A stretch of DNA of 64,000 nucleotides, from the IMG/VR virus record IMGVR_UViG_3300031555_005503, positions 41,352 through 105,351 of that record; one strand, given 5' to 3'. Under the pieces are notes generated by a model that worked only from the letters and a program-made list of their open reading frames with translations, did not search any database and had not been told where the DNA came from. Source of the stretch: a virus. Its lineage: Duplodnaviria; Heunggongvirae; Uroviricota; Caudoviricetes. The position numbers and the translations under genes are program-made. Position 1 is the first letter of the stretch; the number at the start of each line of letters is the position of its first letter. Shown here piece after piece: positions 1,533 to 62,641 of the stretch.

Positions 1533-3902
1533 ATGGCCCAGGAATTAGATTTAAAAATAAAAATACTTAAAGCTAATGCCGAAGCAGATTTGTCTAAAAT
1601 AATTACAGAGCTTGAAGGTAATCCAGTCAATCTCAAAGTTAAGATTGATGATAAAAATTTAAAGACGCTTGAAACTCAATTAACTAATATTGCAAAGAAG
1701 GCAAAGCAAGCTTCGAATAGCTTAAATAATATATATAAAAAGAGTTCAAAGAGTAAGGCTTTTGCAGATGCTGACGCCATGATTAAAAAGTTAGAAAAGC
1801 AGAAATCTAAGCTTGAAAAACTTAAGATGTCTGATACTATAACGAGTGGTGAAAAAAGTGCTATTACTAAGCAGGTTAATGCTATAGAACAGCAGCTTGG
1901 TAAATTAACTAAGGCTAAAGAAAGATATGTAAAAGATTCTTATAAATTTAGCGAACAAGCGCAAAAGAATCATGCAAAATTATTATCTGCATCTGACGAT
2001 ATATTTAATAAAGCATCACTTGCAGAGTCTAAATATCGAAAAAATGATATACCACGTCAACAAAAACGTATAGAAGAAAAGGCTTTAAAGAAGGCTCAAG
2101 AAGAAGCCGAAGTGTCAGCAAAAAAAGCCCAAGAAGAATTAGATAAAACATATCGACAATTAACCGGAGCAGATGGGGCTCTTACTGCTAAAGATAAAGG
2201 TTTATCGGGAACCTTACATAAACATAGTGATATAGCTTTAAAAGAGTTTGAGCAATTAAGAGATACTGCTAAACAATATCGAGATGAATACACTAAATTA
2301 ACTGCTCAAGCCAATGATTTTCGTAATAAAATGGCCACAGGCCAGCCAGTTAATTTAGACGAGGTTTATAAAACTCAAGAAGCAATGAAAAATCTTACTG
2401 CTAATATGGATAATCTTCAAAAGAAGGCTGAACATTTAGCGGCGCCTACTCGACAGGCAATGAATGATAGTATTGCTTTTGATAAAATCGGTAGTAGATT
2501 AACTGATTATTATGGCAAGTATGAAAATCAAATAAGTAAAAATGTTAAATTGCAAGAACGTTTTCAGACTTTATTAGGTAAAGCTAATCGAGGTGATTTT
2601 GCTTCTATAGCTGAAGCTAATAGAGAATTTGCGGCATTCCGTACTGAAGCTCGTGCAGCCGGTGTTGAGATTGAAACTTTTGGATCAAAAATGAAGAAGA
2701 CATTTGATACCATGGTTAGGTCTAATCTTGCTGGCTATGGTACGTTTGCTGTAGAAATGGCTGTAACAGATATATTACGAAATACAGTAGCTGTTGATAC
2801 AGCCATGACAGAACTTAAGAAAGTAACAAATGAAACTGATGCAGCATATAGTCAGTTTTTAGATAATGCATCTCAAAGAGCTGAAAAGTTGGGTGCAACA
2901 TTGACTGAAGTAGTAAATGCAACAGCGGATTATGCAAGGCTTGGTTATAACATAGATCAGGCTACTACTTTGGCCGATTCAGCTATCATCTATCAAAATG
3001 TAGGAGATGACATTGCGAGTATAGATGATGCAACCGCTTCATTGATATCAACTATGCAAGGTTTTGGTATAGCTTCAGAAGACTCTATGACTATAGTAGA
3101 TAAGTTTAATGAAGTTGCCAATAACTATGCATCTAGTGCCGGTGATATAGGTGAAATGGTAAGACGTTCTGCAGCTTCAATGAGTGCTGCTGGCAACACG
3201 CTCGATCAGACAATAGCTTTGGGCGTAGCAGCTAACGAAGTTCAGCAGGATGCTGATACTGTCGGAACAGCTTTAAAAACAATGTCTATGAGATTGCGTG
3301 GATCAAAGACCGACCTCGAAGCAGCAGGTCTTGATGCTGAAGGTATGGCTTCGTCCACATCTAAACTTAGAAATGAGCTGATGTCACTTGCTGGAGTTGA
3401 TATCATGCTTAACGAAGATACTTTTAAATCCTCATATGATATCCTTATGGGCATCGGTGAGGTATGGGATAGCTTAAGTGATATAAACCAAGCAAATATA
3501 ACCGAGCTTCTATTCGGCAAGAGACAAGCTAATATTGGTTCAGCTATCCTGCAAAATTACGAACGAGCACAAGAGATATATGAAACATCTCTCAACTCTC
3601 AAGGTTCAGCAACTGCTGAAAACGAGAAGTATCTGGCGTCCGTTCAGGGTCATCTCGACCAATTTATGGCTAAGTGGGAATCATTCTCAACATCAATAGC
3701 CAATTCAGAAGGTCTTAAAATCTTCATTGATCTGGGTGGTCAGATAATTACCATTCTTGATCAACTGACAAAATTCTTTGGAAGTGCAACCATGCTAATA
3801 GTGCCTTTTATGGCTGCAATGTCCAAATTTGGTAACGTCGGTAAATTTAAATATGCCCTCTTACAGCAAGGTAATACAAGCTGTAGGATGATGGTGGCCT
3901 AA
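1533..3902 (+). CDS. tail tape measure domain protein (TP901-family TMP core), 789 aa
   Basis: Coiled-coil, Lys-rich N-terminal half. The central region (GNTLDQTIALGVAANEVQQDADTVGTALKTMSMRLRG..., TELLFGKRQANIGSAIL) matches the TP901-type TMP core. RBS GAGGTGAAAT before the ATG. The stop lies inside the intron-like RNA, so the true 3' end is uncertain. Confidence 0.65.
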   Translation: MAQELDLKIKILKANAEADLSKIITELEGNPVNLKVKIDDKNLKTLETQLTNIAKKAKQASNSLNNIYKKSSKSKAFADADAMIKKLEKQKSKLEKLKMSDTITSGEKSAITKQVNAIEQQLGKLTKAKERYVKDSYKFSEQAQKNHAKLLSASDDIFNKASLAESKYRKNDIPRQQKRIEEKALKKAQEEAEVSAKKAQEELDKTYRQLTGADGALTAKDKGLSGTLHKHSDIALKEFEQLRDTAKQYRDEYTKLTAQANDFRNKMATGQPVNLDEVYKTQEAMKNLTANMDNLQKKAEHLAAPTRQAMNDSIAFDKIGSRLTDYYGKYENQISKNVKLQERFQTLLGKANRGDFASIAEANREFAAFRTEARAAGVEIETFGSKMKKTFDTMVRSNLAGYGTFAVEMAVTDILRNTVAVDTAMTELKKVTNETDAAYSQFLDNASQRAEKLGATLTEVVNATADYARLGYNIDQATTLADSAIIYQNVGDDIASIDDATASLISTMQGFGIASEDSMTIVDKFNEVANNYASSAGDIGEMVRRSAASMSAAGNTLDQTIALGVAANEVQQDADTVGTALKTMSMRLRGSKTDLEAAGLDAEGMASSTSKLRNELMSLAGVDIMLNEDTFKSSYDILMGIGEVWDSLSDINQANITELLFGKRQANIGSAILQNYERAQEIYETSLNSQGSATAENEKYLASVQGHLDQFMAKWESFSTSIANSEGLKIFIDLGGQIITILDQLTKFFGSATMLIVPFMAAMSKFGNVGKFKYALLQQGNTSCRMMVA

Positions 3903-6631: not shown

Positions 6632-9600
6632 ATGGTCAGTAATAATTGGCTGATTACCAATTATGAAAGTAACAGAATGATATTTAAATCCATTGAAAGA
6701 ATGGATGCGGATGGTAATATTACTAATGCTGTTTCATGGGGTATTGGTGGATTTGGACAAGCTAAAAAAGACAAACAAGAATTTCAAGATGCGTTAAACG
6801 AACAAGCTCATAAACGAGATAAGCAAGCTATTGCAGACTTTAATCATATGGTTAAAGTGCAAAACAAGAGTGTTAGTGAAGCTATTGCAAATTTAGGTGG
6901 GGCATCTGAAGCTGTAAAGCAATACTGTCAAGATGCTGGTGCAGCAGGTGCTGATGTTGATAAGTTCACTGAAAAACAAAAAGCTCAGCAAGAAGCTCTT
7001 GAAAAATCCAAGAAAGGCTTCAAAGGACTATCTGCTGCAACTAAAGCTATGGGCGCTAATATCCTGCTTGATCTTGGTGTTGCTGCTGCCATTGCTGCTA
7101 TCTCTGCTGGCTGGAACAAACTCAATAACGAATTTAAAATCACACCTGCCAAAAAGATCGAAGCCATGGAAACTACAGTCAACGACTACAATGCTGCCAT
7201 GGAAGAAAGTCAGAACGGCATTAAAACTATTCAGTCTCTTGAATCTGAATTTACTAGACTTTCTCAGGGTGTTGATGATAGCGGTCGTAATATCAGTCTA
7301 AGTGCTGAGGAATATGAACGATATAACGAGATAGTTAAAGAGTTGGTGGGTATAAGTCCTGAGTTAGTTCAGGGTTATACTGCTGAAGGAAATGCGATTG
7401 TAGATCGTAATACTGCTATCAAGGATGGGATTCAAGCTCAGAAGGATTATGCGGATGCGGCTAAAAATGCTTATACTGCTTCTATTAATGATATTGTCAA
7501 AGGTTCTAAAGAAAACATGAAGACTTCCACATCAGAAATGCGTGGTAGTCTTAGCGATTTTAGAGGATTAGATAGTATTACTTCTGATGTTGGATATAGT
7601 TCGAGATTAATAAATAAAGCATTAGGATATCAAGCAGATTTAACGACTGCTTCTGCTGAAACTCTAAATGATATTTATACTCATCGTGCTGAAATTATAA
7701 AATTAGCTAAAGAAGATGGCGTTGAAGAAGATAAAATTGCTGAAATGGAGGCTTATCTTAGTCAAATCGGTTCTGCATATTCTGAATTCGAATCATCTAT
7801 CCAGCCAATTTTAGATGTACTTAATGCATCTATTGCTGAAAATGCAAAAGTTCTTCCTGAATCTATGAGGGATAATTTACAAGCTGGGCTTAAAGAAATT
7901 GCAACTTTAGATATAGATGGCACAGAAATGAAAGCTAAAGCAATTCAACTCGTTGATACATTAGATACAATTTATAAATCTAATGAAGGTGGATATGCTG
8001 ACGCTTTAAAAGAAGCCAAAGAGGCTCAAGAAGACTTTATGGATTCTGATAGGTCTAAAGATGATGTTATTGAATACGATAAAGTTGTTCAGGATCATAT
8101 AGACACCATAACCGACTTAGCTAAAGAATACCAAAAAGCTGGTGACGATATTACCGCTGCGGCATTGTTTGAAGAAGCTTCTAAAATGGCGGACTTTGCA
8201 ACAGAGAATGTTCTTACTCTTGCTGAAGCATTTAATCCTTTAGCATCTGCGATGGAAGAGGCTCAAGGTGCAAAAGAGAAATTTGATAATGCTATGTCAG
8301 CTAATCCTGATTATGATACAGCTATCAATAGTTTTGGCGAAATTTTTGATGAAATTCTAGATGGCGATGATAATAAAGGTAATGGAAGTAAGGCATTTTG
8401 GCAAGGCGCAGAACAAATTCTCGGTTCAAAAACAATTCGTGAACTTGGCGGCGATTTCGATAAGGTTAATGCTCGCTTAAAAGAACTTAAATCTGGTGCA
8501 AAAGATAGTGCTTCTGCAACTGGTAAGTTCTTTAATATGCTTTTAAATAATGCAGATGAAATTGCAGAATTAGATTTAGGTAAAGTTTGGCAAACATCAA
8601 ATGGTGAAATTAAGTTTGATATTGATTCAAGCAATTGGGCTGAAGTTGCTGATATATTAGGCGTATCATATGAGTATTTAATTGCTATGCTTGATATGTC
8701 TAGAAAATGGGCAGAAATTGATTTATCTGATGATAATGCTGTAAAAACAGCCATTAGCGAAATGGAAACAACCCATAAAACTGCTGATGGAGAAATGTAT
8801 CAGCTTTATAGCAATATTCAATCTGAGGCTGTTGCCGCTGGATTAAGTATAGAAGAACTTGATGGGAAAATTAAGGATCTTACTTCAGAAGGTGTCCATG
8901 TAATCGATTTAGAGGTTGATGCTCCTGAAGATATTGCTGGCGCTCTTAGTGGAATGAGCAGTCAGCTCGCAACAGAGAAAGACGGAAAATATAAAATTAA
9001 TATTGAGAAAACCGTTGCTCAGTTGTTGGATATGGGAGCTAGTGAAGCTCAAATTGAAAAAACCATAAGTAAATGGGAAAAAGACGAAGATAAAAAATTT
9101 GAGTTACAAACAAAGAAACCTGATGATACTGAGTGGTCTGAATGGATTGGCAATATTAAAACAGAATGGCAAGCCGGTCTAGAAGATACTGATGATCCTT
9201 TCACAAAACTTTCAGACTCTGCAGATAAATTTGCTTCTTCAATTGAAAGATTAATAGCAGCATTAGGTTTTATGCCTGATATTGATATAGAAAGTAATCT
9301 TGACGATGTAAAAGAAGATATTGAAGATTTTGCTTTTAATTATGGCAATTTATCTGAGCTTGAAAAAGAAAAAGCTGTTGAAGGAATTAGCAATGAAATT
9401 GAAGAAGCCAAAGAACAACTTGATACTCTTAAAGCTTTAAGAGATGATCCTAATAATAAACTTACAAAAGATCAAAAAAATCAACTTGAATTAGATATAA
9501 CTAATGCTGAAAAGAATATTAAATTATATTCAAAGCTATTAGAAGATGTCAAAGACGATGGCGTTATTAATAATAGTATTAATTGCACAGTTAAAGGATA

Positions 9601-12600
9601 TGATGAACTTTTAACTGCGAATGAAGCTATAGAGGAAAATTCCGAAGAACCTGTTGAAAAAACGGTTGAATATACTGCAGTTTTACAAGAAGAATATGAT
9701 AAAATTGAAAACTGGGGATTAAGTGAATATGCTGAAGAAATAAAGAATGGTACTATTCAATCTGTTTTCGGAAATGTTGATATGGATAAGCGACCTATTA
9801 TTGAATGGTCGGATAAATTAAAGAAAACATATCAAGATGAACTTGCAAGTTGGGTTGATAGTGACGGCAATGTATATGATCCTATAGTTGGACAAATTGA
9901 TACTGTTTTGGGCGGTTCAGGTGGATTTAATATAGGTGACGAAGTTGTAGAAATTGCTTACACTCCTATTATGGAGGTTGATGGCGAAGCAAAATATCTT
10001 GGTAAAAATACTTTGGATAATTACATACAAAGTATTATAGATGAGGCTAACAAAGATGGGCAATGGTCACTTGATGAAATTTTAAAACTCGATGCTAAGG
10101 GTTTAAAAGTTGATAAAATTAATAGTGCTGGTGAGGTTGTAGGTAAAGAGTTTGTTAAAGGCGTAATTGCCGCTGTTGGTGATGAAGGCGCAATTTCTGC
10201 ACGAGACGTTGGCGAATTAATGCATTTTGCTGGTGATTATGGTGCTATTGGATTAGCTTCAAATGTTGAAAATCTTTCCAAAGAAATTGAAGTAGTATAT
10301 GATGATTCAAAATCATTAGACGATGTTGTTAATAATATACGTTTAATCGAAAATGAACAAATACAAAAAGAAGTTCTTTTAAAAACTGTAACTGATGGCA
10401 CATATAATGAAATCTTTAAAGGTTTATCTTATAATGATCAGAACATTGTCTTAAATGCAATTGTACAAGGCGATGGCAATTTTAATCAGCTTAGAAGAAT
10501 TATCGAGAGAATCGATAATGAAGATATTAGAGCTCAAATTGTTGCAGAATTAACTAATGCTGGAGCATTTAATGAATTTTTAAATAATATTAATCTTCTT
10601 ACCAATGAAGAGAAAAAAGTTGTAGTTGATGCTCTTGTCAAAGGAAAAGGCGACGCTGAAGAATTAAATGAAATATTATCTAACTTATCAGAAAGAGATA
10701 GAATCAAACTTACTGATTTAATAGAATCTACTGGTATAAAACTTACAGCTGATACTTCAGGTGTTGAAGAAGGCGTAGATATAGTCGAACAAAAAATAGG
10801 TCTTCTCCCTCCTTCTCATAATACTGTATTTGACGCTGATCCTTCTAAGGCATTATTCGCTTCTAATCAAGTTAATTTAGCAATTAATGATATTGACAAA
10901 GATCCATTTATAACTATTGGTGGAGGACTTTCGCCTAATCTTCAAAGTGCGTTAAATCGTATGAAGTCTTTGTTAAGCCAATCGAAAGCTGCTGGTTGGG
11001 TTCCTGCTGCAGAAGGCACATCTAATCGCCGTGTCTACCCTTCTATGGCTAGTGGTGGTAAAGTTGGACCAAATGGAAATGGTGGATTAACTCTTACCGG
11101 CGAATTAGGAACTGAACTTGTATGGCTTCCGGATCAAAATGAATCATTCTTAGTTGGTCAGTTTGGTCCTGAAATGGTTAATCTCCCTGCCAACGCCGTT
11201 GTTTGGCCTGCTGATGAAACTCGTCGTATTATTGGAGATACTATTCCGCATAGTCGCATGAGATTTGGCTCTTCTGCTGAAGGGCATATGACATTCGGTT
11301 CTATGTCTACCGGTGGCTTTAACTCTTCTAGTTACGGTGGATCCAGTTCAAAATCTTCTTCAAAGAGTAAATCTTCCTCTTCTTCTTCCGACTCAGCTTA
11401 TGAGAAAGCTAAAAAAGAGCTGGAACATCAGCTTGAAATGGGCTATATCACAGAAAGTGAATATTATACTAAACTCAAGAAGCTCTATGATAAATATAAG
11501 AAAGATCTTAAGAAGAATGTTGATGATCAGCGTGCAGCTCTTGAAGATTTACGTAGTGCTTGGATTGATGCTTATGAGGCTGCTGTTGATTCTTTAGATC
11601 ATCAGCTTGAAATGGGTAAAATTTCAGAAGCTGACTATCTGAAACAGCTTAAAGCTCTTGGTGATAAATACTTTAAAAATCGTAAAGGTTATGATAAGGA
11701 GTGGAAAGATCACCTCGAAGATCGCAAAGATGCTGCTAATGATGCTTATGATGCTGAAGTTGAAGCGCTCGAAGATTCACTTGATCGTGGTTTAATTAGT
11801 ATCCAGAATTACTATGCTGCCGTTACTAAGTTGCAGAATAAATATCTGACTGGTAAGGAAATGGTCGATGATCTCAAAGATGCCCAAGATGACATGTATG
11901 ATAATCTCATGGATGGTCTTGATAAGATTTGGGAAGATGCTGAACAGCAGATAGAAGATAATGATTTATTTGGCACTTGGGTTGAAGGCGGCCCTACTGC
12001 CATCGAAATCATGGAAGATGCATTTGACGAAATTGAAAAATTAAGTCATGATTATTTTGCAACAGAAACTGAACGTCTTGAATATCTTAAGGATAAAGAG
12101 CGCGAACTTGCAGAGGCTCGTAAGGATTATTATGAGGAGCGACAAGACCAATTAGATACGATTCTTGATTTAATTGAAGATATGCTTCGTCAAGAAGCTG
12201 AAGATTATATCGATTCTTTAGAAAAGCAAAAGGATGCGTATCAGGATATTATAGATGCCAAAAAGAAGTCCTTACAGCTTACTGAACGTGAACTGGATTA
12301 TCAGGATGAAATGAATGATTCTGCGCAAGAAATCAGTAAGCTTCAAGCTCGAATTGCAGTTCTCAGTCGTGATGATAGTAGAGCTGCAGCTGCAGAACGA
12401 GCAGAATTAGAAGCTCAGCTTGCAGAGGCTTTAAAAGATCAGAATCGAGCACAGCGCGACGAAACTTTGAATAGAACTGAAGATAGTCTTGATAAACAAG
12501 CTGAATTATTTACATCACTTATTGATAAGCAGATTGAAGTTGTTCAAAATTGGTTAGATAATAAATCAGCTGTTCTTGAAGTAGTTATGGATACTGTTGA

Positions 12601-13243
12601 ACAACGCGAGACTAACAATCTTCTGAATCGCCTTATTGCTTATAATGGTGAACATGGCGACGCAATGATGTCTACTATTGAAACCGCAATGAAAGATCTT
12701 GATGGTTTAATTGCGGAATATGGTAATGATGTTGAAAGTATCGTTGAGATTCTTCAGAAAGGTATTAATGTTCATGTTACTGGTGGTATTATCGGTGTAG
12801 ATCAAACTGATTATGCTGAAACTCAGACGGAAACTAAAAATAAACCGATAACGCATCATGATGGCCTTGCAACTGGATTTACTGGTAATGGCGCAGATCA
12901 GAAACAGCATGAAGTATATCGTTTACTTACTGATGATGAATTAGTATTTAATCGTGAAGATCAGTTGCGTATTGCAAGCCAGCTTCAGGTTCTTGATACT
13001 GTGAAAAAATCATTTTCTAATTTAGCTAAAGGCACTATTGCGCAGCCGTCGCAAACTAACCAGACTATTGAGTTAGTTATTAATGCCCCTATTACAATCC
13101 AAGGTAATGCAACTACCGATGTGGTAGAAAAGATCGAAAAGGCTATAGATAGCAGCGCAGACAAAGCATTATCTAAACTTAACGAAGCGCTTAGGATTAA
13201 TGGTGTTCATAGTAGAGCATCATCAAATTTACGAAAAAATTAA
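6632..13243 (+). CDS. tail tape measure protein (2203 aa) with C-terminal tandem coiled-coil repeats
   Basis: Very large coiled-coil protein placed directly upstream of Dit and Tal. Hydrophobic segment ILLDLGVAAAIAAISAGW. Ser/Lys linker. Three ~55-aa HQLEMGxISExxY repeats. Confidence 0.6.
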   Translation: MVSNNWLITNYESNRMIFKSIERMDADGNITNAVSWGIGGFGQAKKDKQEFQDALNEQAHKRDKQAIADFNHMVKVQNKSVSEAIANLGGASEAVKQYCQDAGAAGADVDKFTEKQKAQQEALEKSKKGFKGLSAATKAMGANILLDLGVAAAIAAISAGWNKLNNEFKITPAKKIEAMETTVNDYNAAMEESQNGIKTIQSLESEFTRLSQGVDDSGRNISLSAEEYERYNEIVKELVGISPELVQGYTAEGNAIVDRNTAIKDGIQAQKDYADAAKNAYTASINDIVKGSKENMKTSTSEMRGSLSDFRGLDSITSDVGYSSRLINKALGYQADLTTASAETLNDIYTHRAEIIKLAKEDGVEEDKIAEMEAYLSQIGSAYSEFESSIQPILDVLNASIAENAKVLPESMRDNLQAGLKEIATLDIDGTEMKAKAIQLVDTLDTIYKSNEGGYADALKEAKEAQEDFMDSDRSKDDVIEYDKVVQDHIDTITDLAKEYQKAGDDITAAALFEEASKMADFATENVLTLAEAFNPLASAMEEAQGAKEKFDNAMSANPDYDTAINSFGEIFDEILDGDDNKGNGSKAFWQGAEQILGSKTIRELGGDFDKVNARLKELKSGAKDSASATGKFFNMLLNNADEIAELDLGKVWQTSNGEIKFDIDSSNWAEVADILGVSYEYLIAMLDMSRKWAEIDLSDDNAVKTAISEMETTHKTADGEMYQLYSNIQSEAVAAGLSIEELDGKIKDLTSEGVHVIDLEVDAPEDIAGALSGMSSQLATEKDGKYKINIEKTVAQLLDMGASEAQIEKTISKWEKDEDKKFELQTKKPDDTEWSEWIGNIKTEWQAGLEDTDDPFTKLSDSADKFASSIERLIAALGFMPDIDIESNLDDVKEDIEDFAFNYGNLSELEKEKAVEGISNEIEEAKEQLDTLKALRDDPNNKLTKDQKNQLELDITNAEKNIKLYSKLLEDVKDDGVINNSINCTVKGYDELLTANEAIEENSEEPVEKTVEYTAVLQEEYDKIENWGLSEYAEEIKNGTIQSVFGNVDMDKRPIIEWSDKLKKTYQDELASWVDSDGNVYDPIVGQIDTVLGGSGGFNIGDEVVEIAYTPIMEVDGEAKYLGKNTLDNYIQSIIDEANKDGQWSLDEILKLDAKGLKVDKINSAGEVVGKEFVKGVIAAVGDEGAISARDVGELMHFAGDYGAIGLASNVENLSKEIEVVYDDSKSLDDVVNNIRLIENEQIQKEVLLKTVTDGTYNEIFKGLSYNDQNIVLNAIVQGDGNFNQLRRIIERIDNEDIRAQIVAELTNAGAFNEFLNNINLLTNEEKKVVVDALVKGKGDAEELNEILSNLSERDRIKLTDLIESTGIKLTADTSGVEEGVDIVEQKIGLLPPSHNTVFDADPSKALFASNQVNLAINDIDKDPFITIGGGLSPNLQSALNRMKSLLSQSKAAGWVPAAEGTSNRRVYPSMASGGKVGPNGNGGLTLTGELGTELVWLPDQNESFLVGQFGPEMVNLPANAVVWPADETRRIIGDTIPHSRMRFGSSAEGHMTFGSMSTGGFNSSSYGGSSSKSSSKSKSSSSSSDSAYEKAKKELEHQLEMGYITESEYYTKLKKLYDKYKKDLKKNVDDQRAALEDLRSAWIDAYEAAVDSLDHQLEMGKISEADYLKQLKALGDKYFKNRKGYDKEWKDHLEDRKDAANDAYDAEVEALEDSLDRGLISIQNYYAAVTKLQNKYLTGKEMVDDLKDAQDDMYDNLMDGLDKIWEDAEQQIEDNDLFGTWVEGGPTAIEIMEDAFDEIEKLSHDYFATETERLEYLKDKERELAEARKDYYEERQDQLDTILDLIEDMLRQEAEDYIDSLEKQKDAYQDIIDAKKKSLQLTERELDYQDEMNDSAQEISKLQARIAVLSRDDSRAAAAERAELEAQLAEALKDQNRAQRDETLNRTEDSLDKQAELFTSLIDKQIEVVQNWLDNKSAVLEVVMDTVEQRETNNLLNRLIAYNGEHGDAMMSTIETAMKDLDGLIAEYGNDVESIVEILQKGINVHVTGGIIGVDQTDYAETQTETKNKPITHHDGLATGFTGNGADQKQHEVYRLLTDDELVFNREDQLRIASQLQVLDTVKKSFSNLAKGTIAQPSQTNQTIELVINAPITIQGNATTDVVEKIEKAIDSSADKALSKLNEALRINGVHSRASSNLRKN

Positions 13244-41186: not shown

Positions 41187-41743
41187 AATAATTCTTCCTC
41201 ACTTAAGAATTTTGAAATATCGGTATTCTTTTGATTTTGAGAAATGTTAGTTTCTGAATTTAACGCTTTAACAGTTAATGTTTCTTGCAATGTATCTTTT
41301 GAGATCTTTTCTCTTGTATATTGCTGTATCTTTTTCTTTGCATCAAATTCCTTTTTCACTTCATATGCATGTGATTTTATTATGGCAAAAATATATTTAC
41401 ATTTAGCATTAGAGTCCTTAAATTCTTTATTGCTTATAGCATATATAATATTTTCATAATATCTTTTTACAGTTTCTAAGATCACAGAATATGAATACCC
41501 TTGTAGTTTTTTTAAGTTATATGGCGTAAGTGAGCTATATTCTAAAGAAGGATCATATCCGAGAAAATCTTCATCAATAATTGCTTTAACCTTATTGTAT
41601 GCATCTACCTCGGCCCGATACTCTTTATAAATCTCTTCTGATTTAAAATACCCTTCAGTTTCACTACGGTAAAACTCATCCATATATCCTTGTTCGCCTG
41701 TTGCCTTACATTTTGTTAGCCTATGTGGTATTTTTCTTGCCAT
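41183..41743 (-). CDS. hypothetical protein
   Basis: 186-aa ORF with overlapping stop/start. Confidence 0.4.
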   Translation of the reverse strand: MARKIPHRLTKCKATGEQGYMDEFYRSETEGYFKSEEIYKEYRAEVDAYNKVKAIIDEDFLGYDPSLEYSSLTPYNLKKLQGYSYSVILETVKRYYENIIYAISNKEFKDSNAKCKYIFAIIKSHAYEVKKEFDAKKKIQQYTREKISKDTLQETLTVKALNSETNISQNQKNTDISKFLSEEELL

Positions 41744-53581: not shown

Positions 53582-54067
53582 TTAAACCTCCATTTGCAGA
53601 ATACGTTTAGCGGTTTTAATGTGCTTTTCCTCCAAACCTTTTCTTTCAGATGTTTGAAGTAAATGTGATGAACATGGGCGAATCCATTTTCCATCTATAT
53701 CATCTATAACTACATATCCATCAACTTCCTCATGATCATCAAGATACGCTTTAATTTCATCTCCTCGACGCCTCATAAATCTATCAAATATTGGAGTCTT
53801 TCCATATAACTCAATACCGAATTCTCCTAATTTATTACGAAGCTCAATAAAATCTTTAGCAAATTCAGTTTTCTTCATACCAACATCAAGATGTTTCCAA
53901 CCCATTCGCCAAGTTGAAGAAAGAACCACTTTTGCATCGGTTTGGTCAATAAGTTGTTTGAGAATTTTTATATTTTTTTCTTCAACAAATATTGATCCAG
54001 TAGATGTCAATTCTTTTGTATAATAAGTATTAAGAACGCCATCGATATCAAGAAAAATTATCTTCAT
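53582..54067 (-). CDS. HAD-superfamily phosphatase
   Basis: Motif I FLDIDGVLN. Later VVIDDIDG. Confidence 0.55.
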   Translation of the reverse strand: MKIIFLDIDGVLNTYYTKELTSTGSIFVEEKNIKILKQLIDQTDAKVVLSSTWRMGWKHLDVGMKKTEFAKDFIELRNKLGEFGIELYGKTPIFDRFMRRRGDEIKAYLDDHEEVDGYVVIDDIDGKWIRPCSSHLLQTSERKGLEEKHIKTAKRILQMEV

Positions 54068-54588: not shown

Positions 54589-55089
54589 TTATCTAGGTAT
54601 TGATTCACACACAATAGGTTCACATACCATTGCGCATAATTCACAGGCAGCTTTTACCGCCTCTCTTGCTGATGCTCCCATATGTAATGCTCCACTTGCA
54701 TAATCTTCTCCTGCACCAATTGCATAATAATCTTCAATTGGGAAAACTAACATACCCTCTATTGCAAAAGCTTTACCTTTATATGCGATTATATATGGAT
54801 TCTTAAAACTGTTGTCACCGGTTAAATCATTCTTCCATCTTCTAAATTCAAGAATATAATCTAACACGTTTTTTTCATCCATTTCTTCTATTGTATGTGT
54901 CTTCATATAATGAAAGAGTAAACTACTTTCTTCTGCGACTCCGCAACCTCCGATAATCATATCGTTGTGTTTCATCATTTTAACAACTTTATTTTGTGCG
55001 TTATTAAGTTTAGTCCAACCCTGAACAACAATAGAATCAGAAGCCATTTCAATTGTATTTTTATTTATTTTACAAACTACTACACTCAT
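54589..55089 (-). CDS. HslV/proteasome-beta-like Ntn-hydrolase peptidase
   Basis: YAIGAGEDYASGALHMGAS resembles the HslV AIGSGGNYA..AA motif. Ser follows the Met1, a possible Ser1 nucleophile. Confidence 0.4.
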   Translation of the reverse strand: MSVVVCKINKNTIEMASDSIVVQGWTKLNNAQNKVVKMMKHNDMIIGGCGVAEESSLLFHYMKTHTIEEMDEKNVLDYILEFRRWKNDLTGDNSFKNPYIIAYKGKAFAIEGMLVFPIEDYYAIGAGEDYASGALHMGASAREAVKAACELCAMVCEPIVCESIPR

Positions 55090-55585: not shown

Positions 55586-56716
55586 TTACTTTCTATACCT
55601 AAATTTTGGCATTGGCAATAATTTAAATAGATTCTTCTTATGTAATTCATCTATTCTTTCTTTTACTTCAGGATCATCACAAATACCTTCCCTAATGTAT
55701 TTATCTAATACTTTATATGTAAAACCTAAATTGTCTTCATCAGTTTTCCCACTAAGACCATCTGCAGGTGTCTTTTCAATAAATTCTTTAGGAAGTCCAA
55801 GAGAATATCCTAATGTCTTAACCTCTTGTACGGTCAAATTTGATAATGGGCTAAAGTCGCCGGCCATATCGCCGTATCTTGTGGAATATCCAACCCAGTC
55901 TTCAGACAGGTTGCATGTATTGGCAACTCTGCCATTCATACTTTGAGAAACTCCATAAAGAACAGCCATCCTAAGTCTTGGCGGCAAATTAATAATCGTT
56001 TGTTCGCTAAGACGATCACAACAATCATCAATTTGAGTAATAGCATTATCAAACATTCGACTAATATCTATCGTACAATAATTAATTCCTAAGTGATTAC
56101 ATAAATTGTAGGAAACATCGATGTCGCTTTGTTTACCGTTAGGCATCAGTACGCCAAAAACTCTTTCCTTGCCAAGAGCTTCAACACAGAGAGCCGCAAC
56201 TACCGAACTGTCTTTGCCTCCAGAAATACCTACTATTGCATTGCATCCTTTACCGTTTTCTTCAAACCAGTCTCTGATCCACTGAACACAATCGTTTTTA
56301 ATTGGTTCAATTTCTTTAATATGTTCTTCGGCTTCAATCTCATCAATTAATTCGCATAGCATATCATATACAAGTGGTAAACCACCTCTATCATCAATAT
56401 AGACATTAGCATAAGTCTTTCTACCTTTAACAGGTACTGAACTATCGCAATTAATTCCTTCATATTTAATGTTATGTTCATTAAGATAAGCCTGAATTTT
56501 AGGATATTCGCTTTCTCCATTACCTGTTAATATAATTACTTCAGATCTACTTTCCCATCTATGAAGAAGTTCAATGATATTATTAAATGTCTTTCCTGTG
56601 CCATGGAAATCATATAACGTATCATCAAAATCCACACAAAATATTAATTTACCATGCTGAAGATATTCATCTTTTAATCTTTTATAGCAATTTTTTACTT
56701 CTAAATACCAATCCAT
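55586..56716 (-). CDS. nadE: NAD+ synthetase (NadE, PP-loop) fused to an N-terminal HAD-like domain
   Basis: C-terminal NAIVGISGGKDSSVVAALCVEALG, the NadE PP-loop. N-terminal ~130 aa carry HAD motif I FCVDFDDTL. Confidence 0.65.
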   Translation of the reverse strand: MDWYLEVKNCYKRLKDEYLQHGKLIFCVDFDDTLYDFHGTGKTFNNIIELLHRWESRSEVIILTGNGESEYPKIQAYLNEHNIKYEGINCDSSVPVKGRKTYANVYIDDRGGLPLVYDMLCELIDEIEAEEHIKEIEPIKNDCVQWIRDWFEENGKGCNAIVGISGGKDSSVVAALCVEALGKERVFGVLMPNGKQSDIDVSYNLCNHLGINYCTIDISRMFDNAITQIDDCCDRLSEQTIINLPPRLRMAVLYGVSQSMNGRVANTCNLSEDWVGYSTRYGDMAGDFSPLSNLTVQEVKTLGYSLGLPKEFIEKTPADGLSGKTDEDNLGFTYKVLDKYIREGICDDPEVKERIDELHKKNLFKLLPMPKFRYRK

Positions 56717-58182
56717 TAGAATTCTCCTCTGTGTAAAATATCTCTAATTTCAGCTAATGTATAATTTTTTAATAATACTCCATCTTTAAATACTGGTTGC
56801 AGTAAATTTCCTTCTGGAATAGTAGAGCTAGTATATTCGTCTTTATACTTTAACCCTCCGCTTTCTTTATACACATAGCATAATCCCTTCTGAGACTTCT
56901 TAAATCCGCCTTCTTTTGGATTTTTGAAAATAGGATATTCTTTACCATCTACTTCTGCATAACATGCTTTAATACAAGAACTAAATGTATCTCTAGTAAA
57001 CGGCTTTAATTCCCCATCTTCTTCAATACAATGCATTGAGAAAGAACCTACTCCAAGTGCCACATTACTTGCAGCAAATCCATTTTGCATCAGAATTTCA
57101 TATATTCGCTCTGCTCTTTGAACTGTAATTGAATCACCGTAAATAGCTTTTACATGTGGATCCAGTACTTTATAGCCTTTGCTATTTAAAGTGCCACCAA
57201 ACTGTTCCCACAGCTTAAATACTGTCTGAGTTACTACTTCTACACAGTCACCAGAATCACCTCTCATAAGCATACATCCATTATGAGCCATGATTTCATC
57301 ATGAATCTTAGGCAAAATATTATCAATTACGTTCCAGTAATCATAGCTATCAAGTACACATGAGAAACTTGTGTTAGGATATAATTCAGTCAATAACTTT
57401 CTCAGGAAAGTTTCTTCATCTCCATCTATTGCATAATTGCTACACATTACAAAATGCTCACTACTTACAGCTCCAAATGCAACCTCTTCTTTTTCACAAT
57501 CACAATTATACATTTTTTCAAGATACGGAATTACTGGCACTGTTGCAGTGTTTACAAATGATAGACACCATCCGGATCCTGCTTTGAGTGCAGCATCAAG
57601 ACCCATATCACCTCTAAAGTCGAAGCTACCCAAAGCTTTTCTTCTTGGAGTATCTTCATCGCACGTCATATCATAATATTTATTTACAACATCACGATAC
57701 GTCTTACCTACTGTTGCAGTGATCATTGGATACCAAAGCTCTGCACTAATTAAAGATTCAAGTGCTTGCGGCAACCAAGCAAAATCATCATGAGTATTTG
57801 TAATACCAAACATAGGTACCTTCATTGGAACCATTGTTCCTTCTGGAAGCGCTGTAATTTCAATTGGCAAATACCCAAGATGATGCAGTTTTATAATTTT
57901 TTCGATATCATATACACCTTCACCAAGCGTATTATCAAGAACTCTTTTATATTCAGCGATTACTTCATCTTCTGGCCTTTCAAAAAAATTATCTCTAAAG
58001 TGATCAATAAGATAAGTTTTGCAAAATGCTTGTAATCCAAACATTACAACTTTATCCCATCTATTCACTCTACTCATTCGCGGCGTAAAGTAGGATACAG
58101 ATTTTGTCATACCCGGATTAAGCATTTCTGCATGAACTGCTTTGTAAAAATCACATAATAATAATGAATTCATTTCGTGCAT
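56716..58182 (-). CDS. nicotinamide phosphoribosyltransferase family (NadV/Nampt-like; candidate Namat of NARP1)
   Basis: N-terminal LLLCDFYKAVH. Length 488 aa. Nampt-like core. Start overlaps the stop of the Prs-like gene. Confidence 0.7.
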   Translation of the reverse strand: MHEMNSLLLCDFYKAVHAEMLNPGMTKSVSYFTPRMSRVNRWDKVVMFGLQAFCKTYLIDHFRDNFFERPEDEVIAEYKRVLDNTLGEGVYDIEKIIKLHHLGYLPIEITALPEGTMVPMKVPMFGITNTHDDFAWLPQALESLISAELWYPMITATVGKTYRDVVNKYYDMTCDEDTPRRKALGSFDFRGDMGLDAALKAGSGWCLSFVNTATVPVIPYLEKMYNCDCEKEEVAFGAVSSEHFVMCSNYAIDGDEETFLRKLLTELYPNTSFSCVLDSYDYWNVIDNILPKIHDEIMAHNGCMLMRGDSGDCVEVVTQTVFKLWEQFGGTLNSKGYKVLDPHVKAIYGDSITVQRAERIYEILMQNGFAASNVALGVGSFSMHCIEEDGELKPFTRDTFSSCIKACYAEVDGKEYPIFKNPKEGGFKKSQKGLCYVYKESGGLKYKDEYTSSTIPEGNLLQPVFKDGVLLKNYTLAEIRDILHRGEF

Positions 58183-58979
58183 TACAATACCTCCTCTATA
58201 CGCATTGTATTAATCTTTTCATGTGATGAATGAAAAAGACTATCTGTGGTCCAAACACTTTTTATAAGATCTCCTTTTAATAGCTCACCTTGATGAATTG
58301 TATCTTCGCAATGAGTTACATATAGATGAACATCTTTTGCCCCAAGCTCTTTAAGCTTTTTTGCTGCAAAATAAAAAGTTCCTCCACGGGAACAAATATC
58401 ATCTATTATAAGAATGTTTTTATTTTTTATTAACTCAGCATCTCCGGCAATATTCAGCCCAAGAATTTTTCCTGTATCCCATTGCCTTTCCTTTACCCCA
58501 AAAGCATATGGTAATTTTGCCATACCACTATAACGTTTCATTGCACCTTCATCTGGAAAAAATAATGAATCTACATAAACTTGATCTAATACTTTGTTTA
58601 TAAATAGCTCTGGAGTTTTCACACATATATTATCAATTAACGCCTCGCTTACAGAAGAATGTGGATCTAATACTGATACATAATCAAAATTGAGGCTATT
58701 AATAATATTTGCAAAAAATTTTAAAGTGAAAACTTCATCATCATGTTTTACTCTATCCATGCGAGCGTTTGGAATGTACGGCATTTTCAATTGGATATTT
58801 GAACAACGAAGTTTATCTAAATGTTTCTTTACGTAGATAAGCGTTATTAATTCTTCTTCACGTTCATATAACCATGTTATAGTAGCATCAGTTCTGAAAA
58901 TCGTTGTTGGCATTTTTATATTTTGTGTACCATCGGGAAAACGATCTACGATTACTTGTGCTCCATCTACTTTTATCAT
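58182..58979 (-). CDS. ribose-phosphate pyrophosphokinase family (Prs-like; candidate ADP-ribose pyrophosphokinase Adps)
   Basis: PRPP-binding motif NILIIDDICSRGGTFYFAAKKL. Confidence 0.65.
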   Translation of the reverse strand: MIKVDGAQVIVDRFPDGTQNIKMPTTIFRTDATITWLYEREEELITLIYVKKHLDKLRCSNIQLKMPYIPNARMDRVKHDDEVFTLKFFANIINSLNFDYVSVLDPHSSVSEALIDNICVKTPELFINKVLDQVYVDSLFFPDEGAMKRYSGMAKLPYAFGVKERQWDTGKILGLNIAGDAELIKNKNILIIDDICSRGGTFYFAAKKLKELGAKDVHLYVTHCEDTIHQGELLKGDLIKSVWTTDSLFHSSHEKINTMRIEEVL

Positions 58980-58983
58980 ATTT

Positions 58984-59589
58984 TTACCTCTTAATTTCTA
59001 TCTGACACATTTCCATAGCCTTAAGTGCATTTTCATGACTATCCGGAGTAACGCCAGCGCAACATGTCGCATCAACGCTAATTTTTGCTTCCGGCATAAA
59101 TGCTTTTAATAACATTGCATTAGATATAACGCAAATATCGGTACAAAGGCCAACAAGTTCAATCTCTACTCCACTACCATCTTTATTATCAATTACTGCC
59201 TGTATCACCTTTGCAAGATCTACTGAGCCAAATGTAGGCTTATTAATTGTATTGTTTTCGCCAATATAAGGTACAATTTCTGGATCAATAATTATAGTTT
59301 TTTTATACATCCAAGTACTTCTAATTGCTTTCTGTATATACCATCCTTCATTTACTTTTCCTGGCTCATAGATACAATGTGGCACCGGAAGATTTTTACC
59401 TTCCTGAATTTCCATATAATTAGGCCCATGTGTATCTTTTGTAAAAAGAATTAATGTTTCTTCGTTTGCTGCTTCAATTTTCTTGATTACATTAGGCACA
59501 ATTGCTTTAGCCTCTTCTGTTCCGAGAGCGCCGTCGATAAAATCATTCTGCATATCTACTACGATTAAAAATTTATTTAAATTATCCAT
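58984..59589 (-). CDS. nicotinamidase/isochorismatase-family hydrolase (PncA-like)
   Basis: LIVVDMQNDFIDGALG, K...TKDTH and the catalytic Cys region LVGLCTDICV. Confidence 0.6.
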   Translation of the reverse strand: MDNLNKFLIVVDMQNDFIDGALGTEEAKAIVPNVIKKIEAANEETLILFTKDTHGPNYMEIQEGKNLPVPHCIYEPGKVNEGWYIQKAIRSTWMYKKTIIIDPEIVPYIGENNTINKPTFGSVDLAKVIQAVIDNKDGSGVEIELVGLCTDICVISNAMLLKAFMPEAKISVDATCCAGVTPDSHENALKAMEMCQIEIKR

Positions 59590-61369: not shown

Positions 61370-61945
61370 TTACGCCTCTATTAAAGCTAGCAATTCATTA
61401 CCATAATTTGATCGGTATGAGCTAAATAATCTCTCAATTATTTCTCTTTTTACATCTTCTTTTGTTGTACAGCTCATAAATTTCATATCAGCTAAACACT
61501 CTTTTAAGGTTGAATATTTTTCAATAGCTTTAACTTTTCCACTATATTGACCTCTTAAATAATCAAGTGCCTGATCATAATCAGTATCTTTGCTAACAAT
61601 ATAAATAAATTCAGTATTTTTATCAGTTAAAGCCGTTGCTACATCACATATAATTTTAAAATCTGTCGCATTAGATCCTACGTTTGAAACTATTTCACGT
61701 ATAACAGCTTTATTATTCTTTAATTTATTATTCATTTTATTACTATTTAGCATAGTTGCATGAGTAGAATCGGCATAAAAATTCACCTGAGTTGAATTAT
61801 CTAAAATAATCTCATTACCGAGATCATCATAGCTTGTATTATCAAGATCTATAAATATGTATTTAGTTATTGCAGGCAGATCTGCAATAAATTCATCCTT
61901 TTTAATTTTTTCAAATACATTATAAATCTCTTCTCGAACATTCAT
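61370..61945 (-). CDS. hypothetical protein
   Basis: 191-aa ORF. Confidence 0.4.
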   Translation of the reverse strand: MNVREEIYNVFEKIKKDEFIADLPAITKYIFIDLDNTSYDDLGNEIILDNSTQVNFYADSTHATMLNSNKMNNKLKNNKAVIREIVSNVGSNATDFKIICDVATALTDKNTEFIYIVSKDTDYDQALDYLRGQYSGKVKAIEKYSTLKECLADMKFMSCTTKEDVKREIIERLFSSYRSNYGNELLALIEA

Positions 61946-62641
61946 TTATTTTAGCTCCTCTATATTTTTATACATGAATTTAATTTTATCTATATTTTTA
62001 TCCGTATGATAATGTCCACAATACCATTTTTCATAATCCAGCTTTTCTTCCAAAGTTCCAAGCCATTCTTCAGTAGATTTATCTACTTTGGTTTGATCAA
62101 TACCAGGTAAAAATACTTCTACAGGTTCATATTTTAATGGACAGGTATGAGTCAAGATGCCGTCGAATTTCCAATTGGCAAAATTACATGTCTGTTCCAC
62201 ATATGATTTAATTTCATCTGACGGCTGTTCATTATCCCACCAATTACCTCTACCCATTAATCTATATTGTTTATCAACGCTATATGCTCCGCCAATGACA
62301 AGATATGCTTTACCATTTAATTTAAACACTTCTCCATCATCTGCAAAGAGTATATTAGGATAATCTTCTTCATACCATACTATTCCGCCATTAAAAACTT
62401 TTGTCTGATATGATGCAATTTCATAAGGTCTTTGTTCGTGATTTCCATGAATACATAATAATGTAATTGGAATATCATCTTGAATCATACTTTTAATTTG
62501 TTTATCTTTATAATCCATAAAATAATTGATACCTGCATCTCCCAAGATAATCATCACATCATCTTTTGTCGTTCCATTTTCATAACAAAATGTTTCGATC
62601 TCATGAAAATATCCATGCGTATCACCAGTTATATAAACCAT
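61946..62641 (-). CDS. metallophosphoesterase (Ser/Thr phosphatase-like)
   Basis: GDTHG, GDAG..Y and GNHE motifs. Confidence 0.65.
   Translation of the reverse strand: MVYITGDTHGYFHEIETFCYENGTTKDDVMIILGDAGINYFMDYKDKQIKSMIQDDIPITLLCIHGNHEQRPYEIASYQTKVFNGGIVWYEEDYPNILFADDGEVFKLNGKAYLVIGGAYSVDKQYRLMGRGNWWDNEQPSDEIKSYVEQTCNFANWKFDGILTHTCPLKYEPVEVFLPGIDQTKVDKSTEEWLGTLEEKLDYEKWYCGHYHTDKNIDKIKFMYKNIEELK

Follow-up and report, generated by a model that had tools for sequence, protein, structure and literature searches.

Depletion of nicotinamide adenine dinucleotide (NAD+) is among the commonest antiviral strategies of bacteria, and three routes by which phages repair the loss are known, the NAD+ reconstitution pathways NARP1, NARP2 and NARP3. 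NARP1, represented by Bas63, SPbetaL1 and ICP1, consists of Adps and Namat (Osterman et al. 2024; PMC12774641; PMC13586617), and its extended form NARP1-AP, from Vibrio phage Gary, of Adps, Adpp and Namat in this order (bioRxiv 10.64898/2026.01.28.702374). NARP2 (Nampt and Nmnat, Vibrio phage KVP40) and NARP3 (PnuC and NadR, Bas30; PMC13464706) proceed via nicotinamide mononucleotide (NMN). Here we describe a related locus in a stretch of 64,000 nucleotides from a gut virus of the Caudoviricetes (positions 41,352 to 105,351 of IMG/VR record IMGVR_UViG_3300031555_005503), referred to below as the window, whose phage identity is backed by genes for tape measure and tail proteins, DNA polymerase, RNR and DnaB helicase. 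Four near-contiguous open reading frames (ORFs) on its minus strand, from 59589 down to 55586, encode a PncA-like nicotinamidase, an Adps-like protein, a Namat-like protein and a fusion of a HAD-like domain to the NAD synthetase NadE. We consider it probable that these four translationally coupled genes constitute a deamidated version of NARP1 that would rebuild NAD+ via nicotinic acid and nicotinic acid adenine dinucleotide (NaAD), all substrates and products being predicted from the sequences of the enzymes.

As in NARP1, the Adps gene lies directly upstream of a Namat-family gene and overlaps it, each product shares ~42% identity with its validated SPbetaL1 counterpart, the transferase has the catalytic His, Arg306, Asp308, the clamp Arg40 and the TRD motif, and ADP-ribose would be the starting point. 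Unlike NARP1, the window operon has four genes rather than two, its transferase carries the changes Asp215Ala and Ala242Ser and a 9-aa insertion in the SCH clamp, and the predicted base and product are nicotinic acid (hence PncA) and NaAD (hence NadE). Like NARP1-AP, it extends NARP1 by accessory enzymes of the same operon; the accessory in phage Gary, however, is a Macro-domain ADPR-1''-phosphate phosphatase whose reaction precedes that of Adps, whereas those of the window are PncA, NadE and the HAD-like domain, and Pfam reported no Macro domain among the proteins scanned. With NARP2 and NARP3 the locus shares a phage-encoded restoration of NAD+, but the window is without an NMNAT or NadR signature, and its predicted route runs via NaAD instead of NMN.

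The ORFs were assigned to families using Pfam, NCBIfam and PHROG profiles. The best Protein Data Bank (PDB) matches of the Namat-like protein are the SPbetaL1 Namat structures 9W5X and 9W5W (E 4e-114), followed by 9KE8 (2e-89) and, at ~1e-43, by human and other Nampt structures. The Adps-like protein (42% identity to SPbetaL1 Adps, E 5e-52) scores 239 bits against phrog_619, compared with 248 for SPbetaL1 Adps, falls under every NCBIfam Prs cut-off, and matches its best solved phosphoribosyl pyrophosphate (PRPP) synthetase, PRPS, at only 2e-18. Housekeeping PRPS enzymes have a PP-loop of the form DDxxDTxGT; that of the window protein, DDICSRGGTF, is within the canonical NARP1 range (DDLSSFGGTF in SPbetaL1, DDICSKGGTF and DDICDGGRTF elsewhere). 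Its Lys163, conserved in at least 97% of relatives, is matched by a Lys in the alignment to SPbetaL1 Adps, and we infer that it is the counterpart of the catalytic-hairpin residue Lys185 of ICP1 Adps. An earlier note on this DNA held that sequence alone could not tell a Prs/NadV pair from an Adps/Namat pair. Family placement, through the SPbetaL1 structure matches on one side and the Adps identity, phrog_619 score and PP-loop on the other, puts the two proteins with Adps and Namat and not with housekeeping Prs and NadV, which makes them a NARP1-type pair. A canonical, NARP2-like combination of Prs and NadV is rejected on the same placement together with the absence of an NMNAT signature: neither the NMNAT/NadD pattern (G-x-[FYW...]-x-P-x-[HT]-x-G-H) nor a Nudix box occurs in the window ORFs of at least 60 aa, covering 64 kb of phage DNA.

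The transferase departs from the characterized enzymes in its pyridine pocket. In the SPbetaL1 Namat crystal, nicotinamide is contacted by Phe189, Arg192, Asp215, Ala242, Arg306, Asp13' and Tyr15', and the D215A substitution lowers activity 8-fold (PMC12774641). The NAMPT equivalent of Asp215, Asp219, forms a hydrogen bond to the amide and sets the specificity for nicotinamide (PMC7096376, PMC12143786). Five of these seven contacts are unchanged in the window protein (Asp13, Tyr15, Phe189, Arg192, Arg306) and the Nampt-like catalytic core is present (His245, Arg306, Asp308, Phe189, Tyr15'); the two remaining contacts are replaced, Asp215 by Ala and Ala242 by Ser. Because the amide-binding Asp is absent, the canonical reaction of nicotinamide with ADP-ribose pyrophosphate (ADPR-PP) to NAD+, which the earlier note associated with this gene arrangement, is probably not the one carried out here. 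Elsewhere in the family, insertions of ~330-340 aa occur at two hot spots (P0167, P0174, P0187, P0189, P0224; P0168, P0170, P0212), one straight after Ala242, by the catalytic His (IPAC...GNTEHS), the other within the adenine clamp (GSFC...SHNTYQ); starting with Cys and ending in HN, they look like active-site inteins.

To see how the pocket relates to gene content, homologous loci, each with as much as 10 kb of flanking DNA, were drawn from IMG/VR viral contigs, one genome per species, metagenomes and GenBank phages. Namat was typed by alignment to SPbetaL1, the flanks were searched with profiles derived from the window proteins, and the counts cover distinct homologues flanked by 3 kb or more on each side. 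Position 215 is Ala in 141 and Ser in 22 of the 163 variant homologues (A/S215 with S242), and the 126 canonical homologues (D/E215 with A242) all have Asp or Glu there; His245, Arg306 and Phe189 are unchanged throughout the 163 variants. A PncA-like gene is found nearby in 162 of 163 variant loci, and both PncA and NadE in 152 of them, compared with 0/126 for PncA and 0/126 for NadE at canonical loci; the Adps gene is retained in 163/163 variant loci. PncA and NadE are therefore near-obligatory partners of the A/S215+S242 transferase, and the nicotinamidase is not the unusual extra that it had been taken for in the earlier note. Changes in gene order leave the link intact (L039, L104, L133-136), the alternative arrangements being Adps-Namat-NadE-PncA, PncA-NadE-Namat with a distant Adps, and PncA-Namat-NadE-...-Adps. 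A scan of viral sequences aimed at an insertion-free variant lineage returned canonical forms only, with PncA or NadE in 0/73, which adds to the negative controls. The NMNAT/NadD signature is absent from all viral variant loci within 10 kb. At 18 canonical bacterial metagenome loci (L398, L418-L451), the opposite strand encodes, immediately downstream of Namat, a ~193-aa protein with the nucleotidyltransferase signature GTYNPIHVGH, a possible NadD or NMNAT partner.

These counts bear on the idea that the locus is a canonical NARP1 lying beside an unrelated PncA/NadE pair, which would feed the host Preiss-Handler route or remove nicotinamide. Both enzymes do belong to the Adps and Namat families and, with SPbetaL1 D215A keeping ~1/8 of wild-type activity, weak use of nicotinamide by a protein with Ala215 is conceivable. 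Such an arrangement leaves unexplained why two pocket changes occur in exactly the lineages that have PncA and NadE, and Namat would lose its substrate to a PncA of its own translationally coupled operon; we regard this reading as quite improbable.

Under the deamidated scheme that we prefer, a host NADase would first cleave NAD+ to ADP-ribose and nicotinamide. PncA would hydrolyse the nicotinamide to nicotinic acid, Adps would convert ADP-ribose and ATP to ADPR-PP, the Namat variant with Ala215 and Ser242 would join nicotinic acid and ADPR-PP to NaAD with release of pyrophosphate, and NadE would turn NaAD, ATP and ammonia into NAD+. This route would account for the nicotinamidase in the operon, for the need for NadE and for the loss of exactly the amide-binding residue. 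The flanking enzymes are compatible with these roles. The closest solved relative of the PncA-like protein is the nicotinamidase of P. horikoshii (1ILW/1IM5; E 4e-9, full-length alignment). Among 46 family members its Asp12, Lys117, Cys153, Asp52, His54 and His71 are at least 97% conserved, and Asp52, His54 and His71 align with conserved Asp and His residues of 1ILW/1IM5. By the P. horikoshii PncA structure, we read Asp12, Lys117 and Cys153 as a candidate catalytic triad, with Asp52, His54 and His71 as the metal site. The cut-off of the NCBIfam nicotinamidase model NF008623 is not reached (28.8 versus 174 bits, for the N-terminal part alone). The NadE domain scores 182 bits with TIGR00552 (cut-off 63.65), contains the SGGxDS ATP-pyrophosphatase loop as GISGGKDSS, and has 2E18, 3P52 and 3FIU as its nearest solved structures. 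As for the advantage of a detour through nicotinic acid, it may trap a membrane-permeant base as an anion, it may match a nicotinate-centred NAD metabolism of the host, or, by ending in the ATP-driven reaction of NadE, it may keep the pathway from running backwards.

The cassette is not confined to phages. Chromosomal copies 70-81% identical to that of the window are present in Ruminococcus, Oscillospiraceae and Lachnospiraceae, including the isolates R. albus 8 and Pseudoruminococcus massiliensis, and a gene for the regulator NrtR adjoins the cassette in 63/80 genome loci and in 0 viral loci. The P. massiliensis operon has the order PncA-Adps-Namat variant-NadE-NrtR, with a glutamine-dependent NadE, and is flanked by housekeeping genes, asd, dapA and an AgrB-family gene being among the neighbours. 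The copies of the R. albus group (L225, L228, L230, L231) have a clamp insertion of ~26 aa, and neither NadE nor NrtR was detected in the flanking DNA of these loci. ADP-ribose makes NrtR dissociate from DNA, and the NrtR operon of C. acetobutylicum is pncA-pncB-nadD-nadE (PMC2330246). Like such NrtR-controlled Preiss-Handler operons, the cassette has PncA first, NadE last, NaAD as the predicted penultimate compound and NrtR-linked bacterial copies. The comparison with C. acetobutylicum suggests that Adps and the Namat variant fill the slot of PncB and NadD, with NaAD as their joint product; in contrast to the Preiss-Handler route, the ribose-phosphate-adenylate part would be taken in one step from ADP-ribose instead of from PRPP and ATP. 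We lean, if only somewhat, towards a condensation of nicotinate and ADPR-PP to NaAD and pyrophosphate as the core of a fourth NAD+ reconstitution pathway, which would be an ADP-ribose-induced NrtR operon of gut Clostridia that phages captured without its regulator for use against NADase immunity.

An anti-defence role in the phage is plausible. A different role with the same chemistry is also possible, though doubtful, in which the phage kept a host-derived NAD-recycling operon as a metabolic set that sustains NAD+ during replication and does not counter NADase immunity. The NrtR-linked chromosomal copies, the housekeeping surroundings of the P. massiliensis operon and the position of the phage cassette among replication and nucleotide-metabolism genes would all suit this purpose. 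Set against them are the proven counter-defence function of the canonical two-gene relatives, the fact that a pathway based on ADP-ribose would have substrate only after NAD+ has been cleaved, and the loss of NrtR from the phage copies.

The adenine clamp bears on which donor is used. The SCH clamp motif of Namat is GSX-phi-X-phi-X-phi-TRD, in which positions 3 and 7 are aromatic. The window sequence, GSFSMHCIEEDGELKPFTRD, has a 9-aa insertion and reads as GSFSMHC, IEEDGELKPF and TRD in succession, with Phe at position 3 and Cys at position 7, so that it departs from the canonical SCH motif. The stacking Arg40 of the SCL loop (an Arg/Lys/Tyr position) is present, PRMSRVN of the window aligning with PRTSRVE, and Arg occupies this position in 140/163 variants. 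In a group of environmental bacteria (L372-L382; gene order NrtR-Adps-PncA-Namat-NadE) the A215+S242 pocket is combined with the intact clamp GSYTYQYNTRD. The same holds for the gut phage Phass-1, whose Namat, 33% identical to that of the window, has A215+S242 and the clamp GAYTYQYVTRD and is accompanied by PncA and NadE. Since these lineages keep a canonical clamp with its aromatic positions, the pocket change goes along with PncA and NadE whether or not the clamp has an insertion; because the deep variant lineages keep the adenine-clamp motif intact, ADPR-PP is favoured as the donor still in use. Phass-1 itself (L453, OQ749652.1, 96860-101298), a 136-kb phage of the 'code 15 clade', has the order PncA-Adps-Namat variant-HAD-like-NadE, the last two genes being annotated as hypothetical.

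If the donor were PRPP, the operon would be a booster of the Preiss-Handler route, in which PRPP comes from the Prs-like protein and nicotinic acid mononucleotide (NaMN) from the Nampt-like one, host NadD converts NaMN to NaAD and the phage NadE finishes the synthesis. This would explain equally well why PncA and NadE are present and Asp215 is lost, and such a booster would agree with the altered clamp of the window lineage and with the PRPP activity of which Namat retains some in vitro. The best-matching NCBIfam model of the transferase, NF006629, is moreover named nicotinate phosphoribosyltransferase, and its cut-off is passed (424 versus 405 bits). The PncB-type equivalog TIGR01513 is not matched (14.8 bits, E 0.01; cut-off 297). 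We nevertheless find this explanation unlikely. By family the Prs-like protein is an Adps, and the Adps of SPbetaL1 makes no PRPP; bacteria bearing the operon would have no need of a second, truncated Prs, yet Adps is never missing from the variant loci. Furthermore, Arg40 and the aromatic residue at clamp position 3 are conserved, with the full adenine-clamp motif in deep lineages, and control by an ADP-ribose-responsive NrtR suits ADP-ribose as the substrate.

Several considerations nonetheless tell against the nicotinic acid route that we favour. The whole chemistry of the variant family is predicted, and the presence of Ala or Ser at position 215 would relieve a clash with the carboxylate, which is not proof of nicotinate binding. 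Use of ADPR-PP is less secure in the window lineage, with Cys7 in the clamp and the 9-residue insertion, than in those with an intact motif, and the residual PRPP activity of Namat means that NaMN is a possible product. The sequence of NadE does not fix its substrate either, and one of its nearest structures, 3FIU, is presumably that of a Francisella enzyme preferring NaMN; indirect support for a preference for NaAD over NaMN comes from the glutamine-dependent NadE that takes the same operon slot in other loci (L273, L264, L275). Finally, all non-Asp forms group together in a neighbour-joining tree of 141 representatives, so that the pocket switch was probably a single event and its association with PncA and NadE holds at the level of a clade, not of many independent events.

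Neither PncA, NadE, nicotinic acid nor NaAD figures as part of a phage pathway in the papers on NARP1, NARP1-AP, NARP3, the Namat structure and RES, and the Phass-1 paper lists 'nicotinamidase' merely as a table entry. A literature search combining NARP1 with nicotinamidase, nicotinic acid, NadE or NaAD did not find the route, in a coverage that leaves out most subscription journals. The genes concerned are currently annotated as Prs, Nampt, 'nicotinate phosphoribosyltransferase' or hypothetical. If the proposal is correct, phage NAD+ repair would gain a further route, via nicotinic acid and NaAD, together with a new enzyme activity in which residues 215 and 242 should switch the choice of substrate, and the puzzle of a nicotinamidase beside a nicotinamide-using enzyme would be settled. 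The pathway would also be encoded chromosomally in bacteria that abound in human and animal guts (Ruminococcus, Lachnospiraceae), apparently under the ADP-ribose-sensing NrtR, and would reach uncultured gut phages as well: IMG/VR holds >100 distinct viral variant loci, and a PncA-like gene is found in 7 of 50,697 deposited GenBank phage records, all of them uncultured human-gut virome sequences. A megablast search of the module against the same 50,697 records gave a single 59-base match and thus no close deposited relative.

The features of the operon are listed in Table 1. The three genes named in the earlier note (PncA-like, Prs-like, Nampt-like) are all borne out at their coordinates on the minus strand, as is the stop/start overlap between the latter two; the span of 56716-59589 does hold these three genes and ends one gene early, missing the NadE fusion (55586-56716). 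Adps and Namat are joined by TAATG, a one-base overlap of stop and start, a second TAATG links Namat to the NadE fusion, and PncA is separated from Adps by 4 nt. A promoter and terminator scan of 54.5-61 kb gave no more candidates than shuffled sequence did.

Table 1. Genes and domains of the operon in the window, with the profile matches that identify them
Feature	Position	Strand	Remarks
PncA-like nicotinamidase, 201 aa	58984-59589	-	First operon gene; Isochorismatase PF00857, E 7.7e-20
Adps-like ADP-ribose pyrophosphokinase (PRPP-synthetase-like), 265 aa	58182-58979	-	phrog_619, 239 bits
Namat-family transferase with altered pyridine pocket, 488 aa	56716-58182	-	NAMPT_N and NAPRTase domains; phrog_448, 526 bits
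HAD-like domain (~135 aa) fused N-terminally to NH3-type NAD synthetase; whole ORF 376 aa	55586-56716	-	
HAD-like N-terminal domain, ~135 aa, accessory	56312-56716	-	phrog_1238, E 2.9e-18
NadE domain (NH3-dependent NAD synthetase), predicted last step	55586-56311	-	PF02540, E 1.4e-53; TIGR00552, 182 bits

The HAD-like domain, which in most relatives is a separate 135-aa protein (e.g. L391, 9606-10001; L408, 546-935; L453, 7549-7968), has conserved Asp-rich and Thr positions that we read as HAD motifs. Pfam gave no match for it, and a Foldseek search of the PDB with its AF2 model (pLDDT 68) returned nothing with E < 0.1, the best TM-score, not significant, being that of the small HAD-like protein 2OBB. 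It is confined to loci without NrtR, almost all viral, and goes with both Namat types (17/102 variant and 22/95 canonical viral loci; 0/72 NrtR-linked loci). The domain possibly represents another type of phosphatase associated with NARP1. A Macro-domain Adpp was considered as the accessory of the window and rejected, the HAD-like domain being found instead. At some canonical loci the HAD-like gene lies between Adps and Namat, the slot occupied by Adpp in phage Gary.

Near the operon, the minus strand also encodes a HAD_SAK_2 phosphatase, an HslV-like peptidase, a PIN/NYN nuclease and a calcineurin-like phosphoesterase (53582-54067, 54589-55089, 61370-61945 and 61946-62641). Far from it, the tape-measure family phrog_4211 is matched by two plus-strand ORFs, 1533-3902 (family positions 234-959) and 6632-13243 (943-1701), separated by ~2.7 kb in which both strands have small ORFs. 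Recoding of TAG stop codons, as in Phass-1, was rejected as the cause, the window being without tRNAs and the stops between the fragments mostly TAA; the tape-measure gene may have been split by an insertion.

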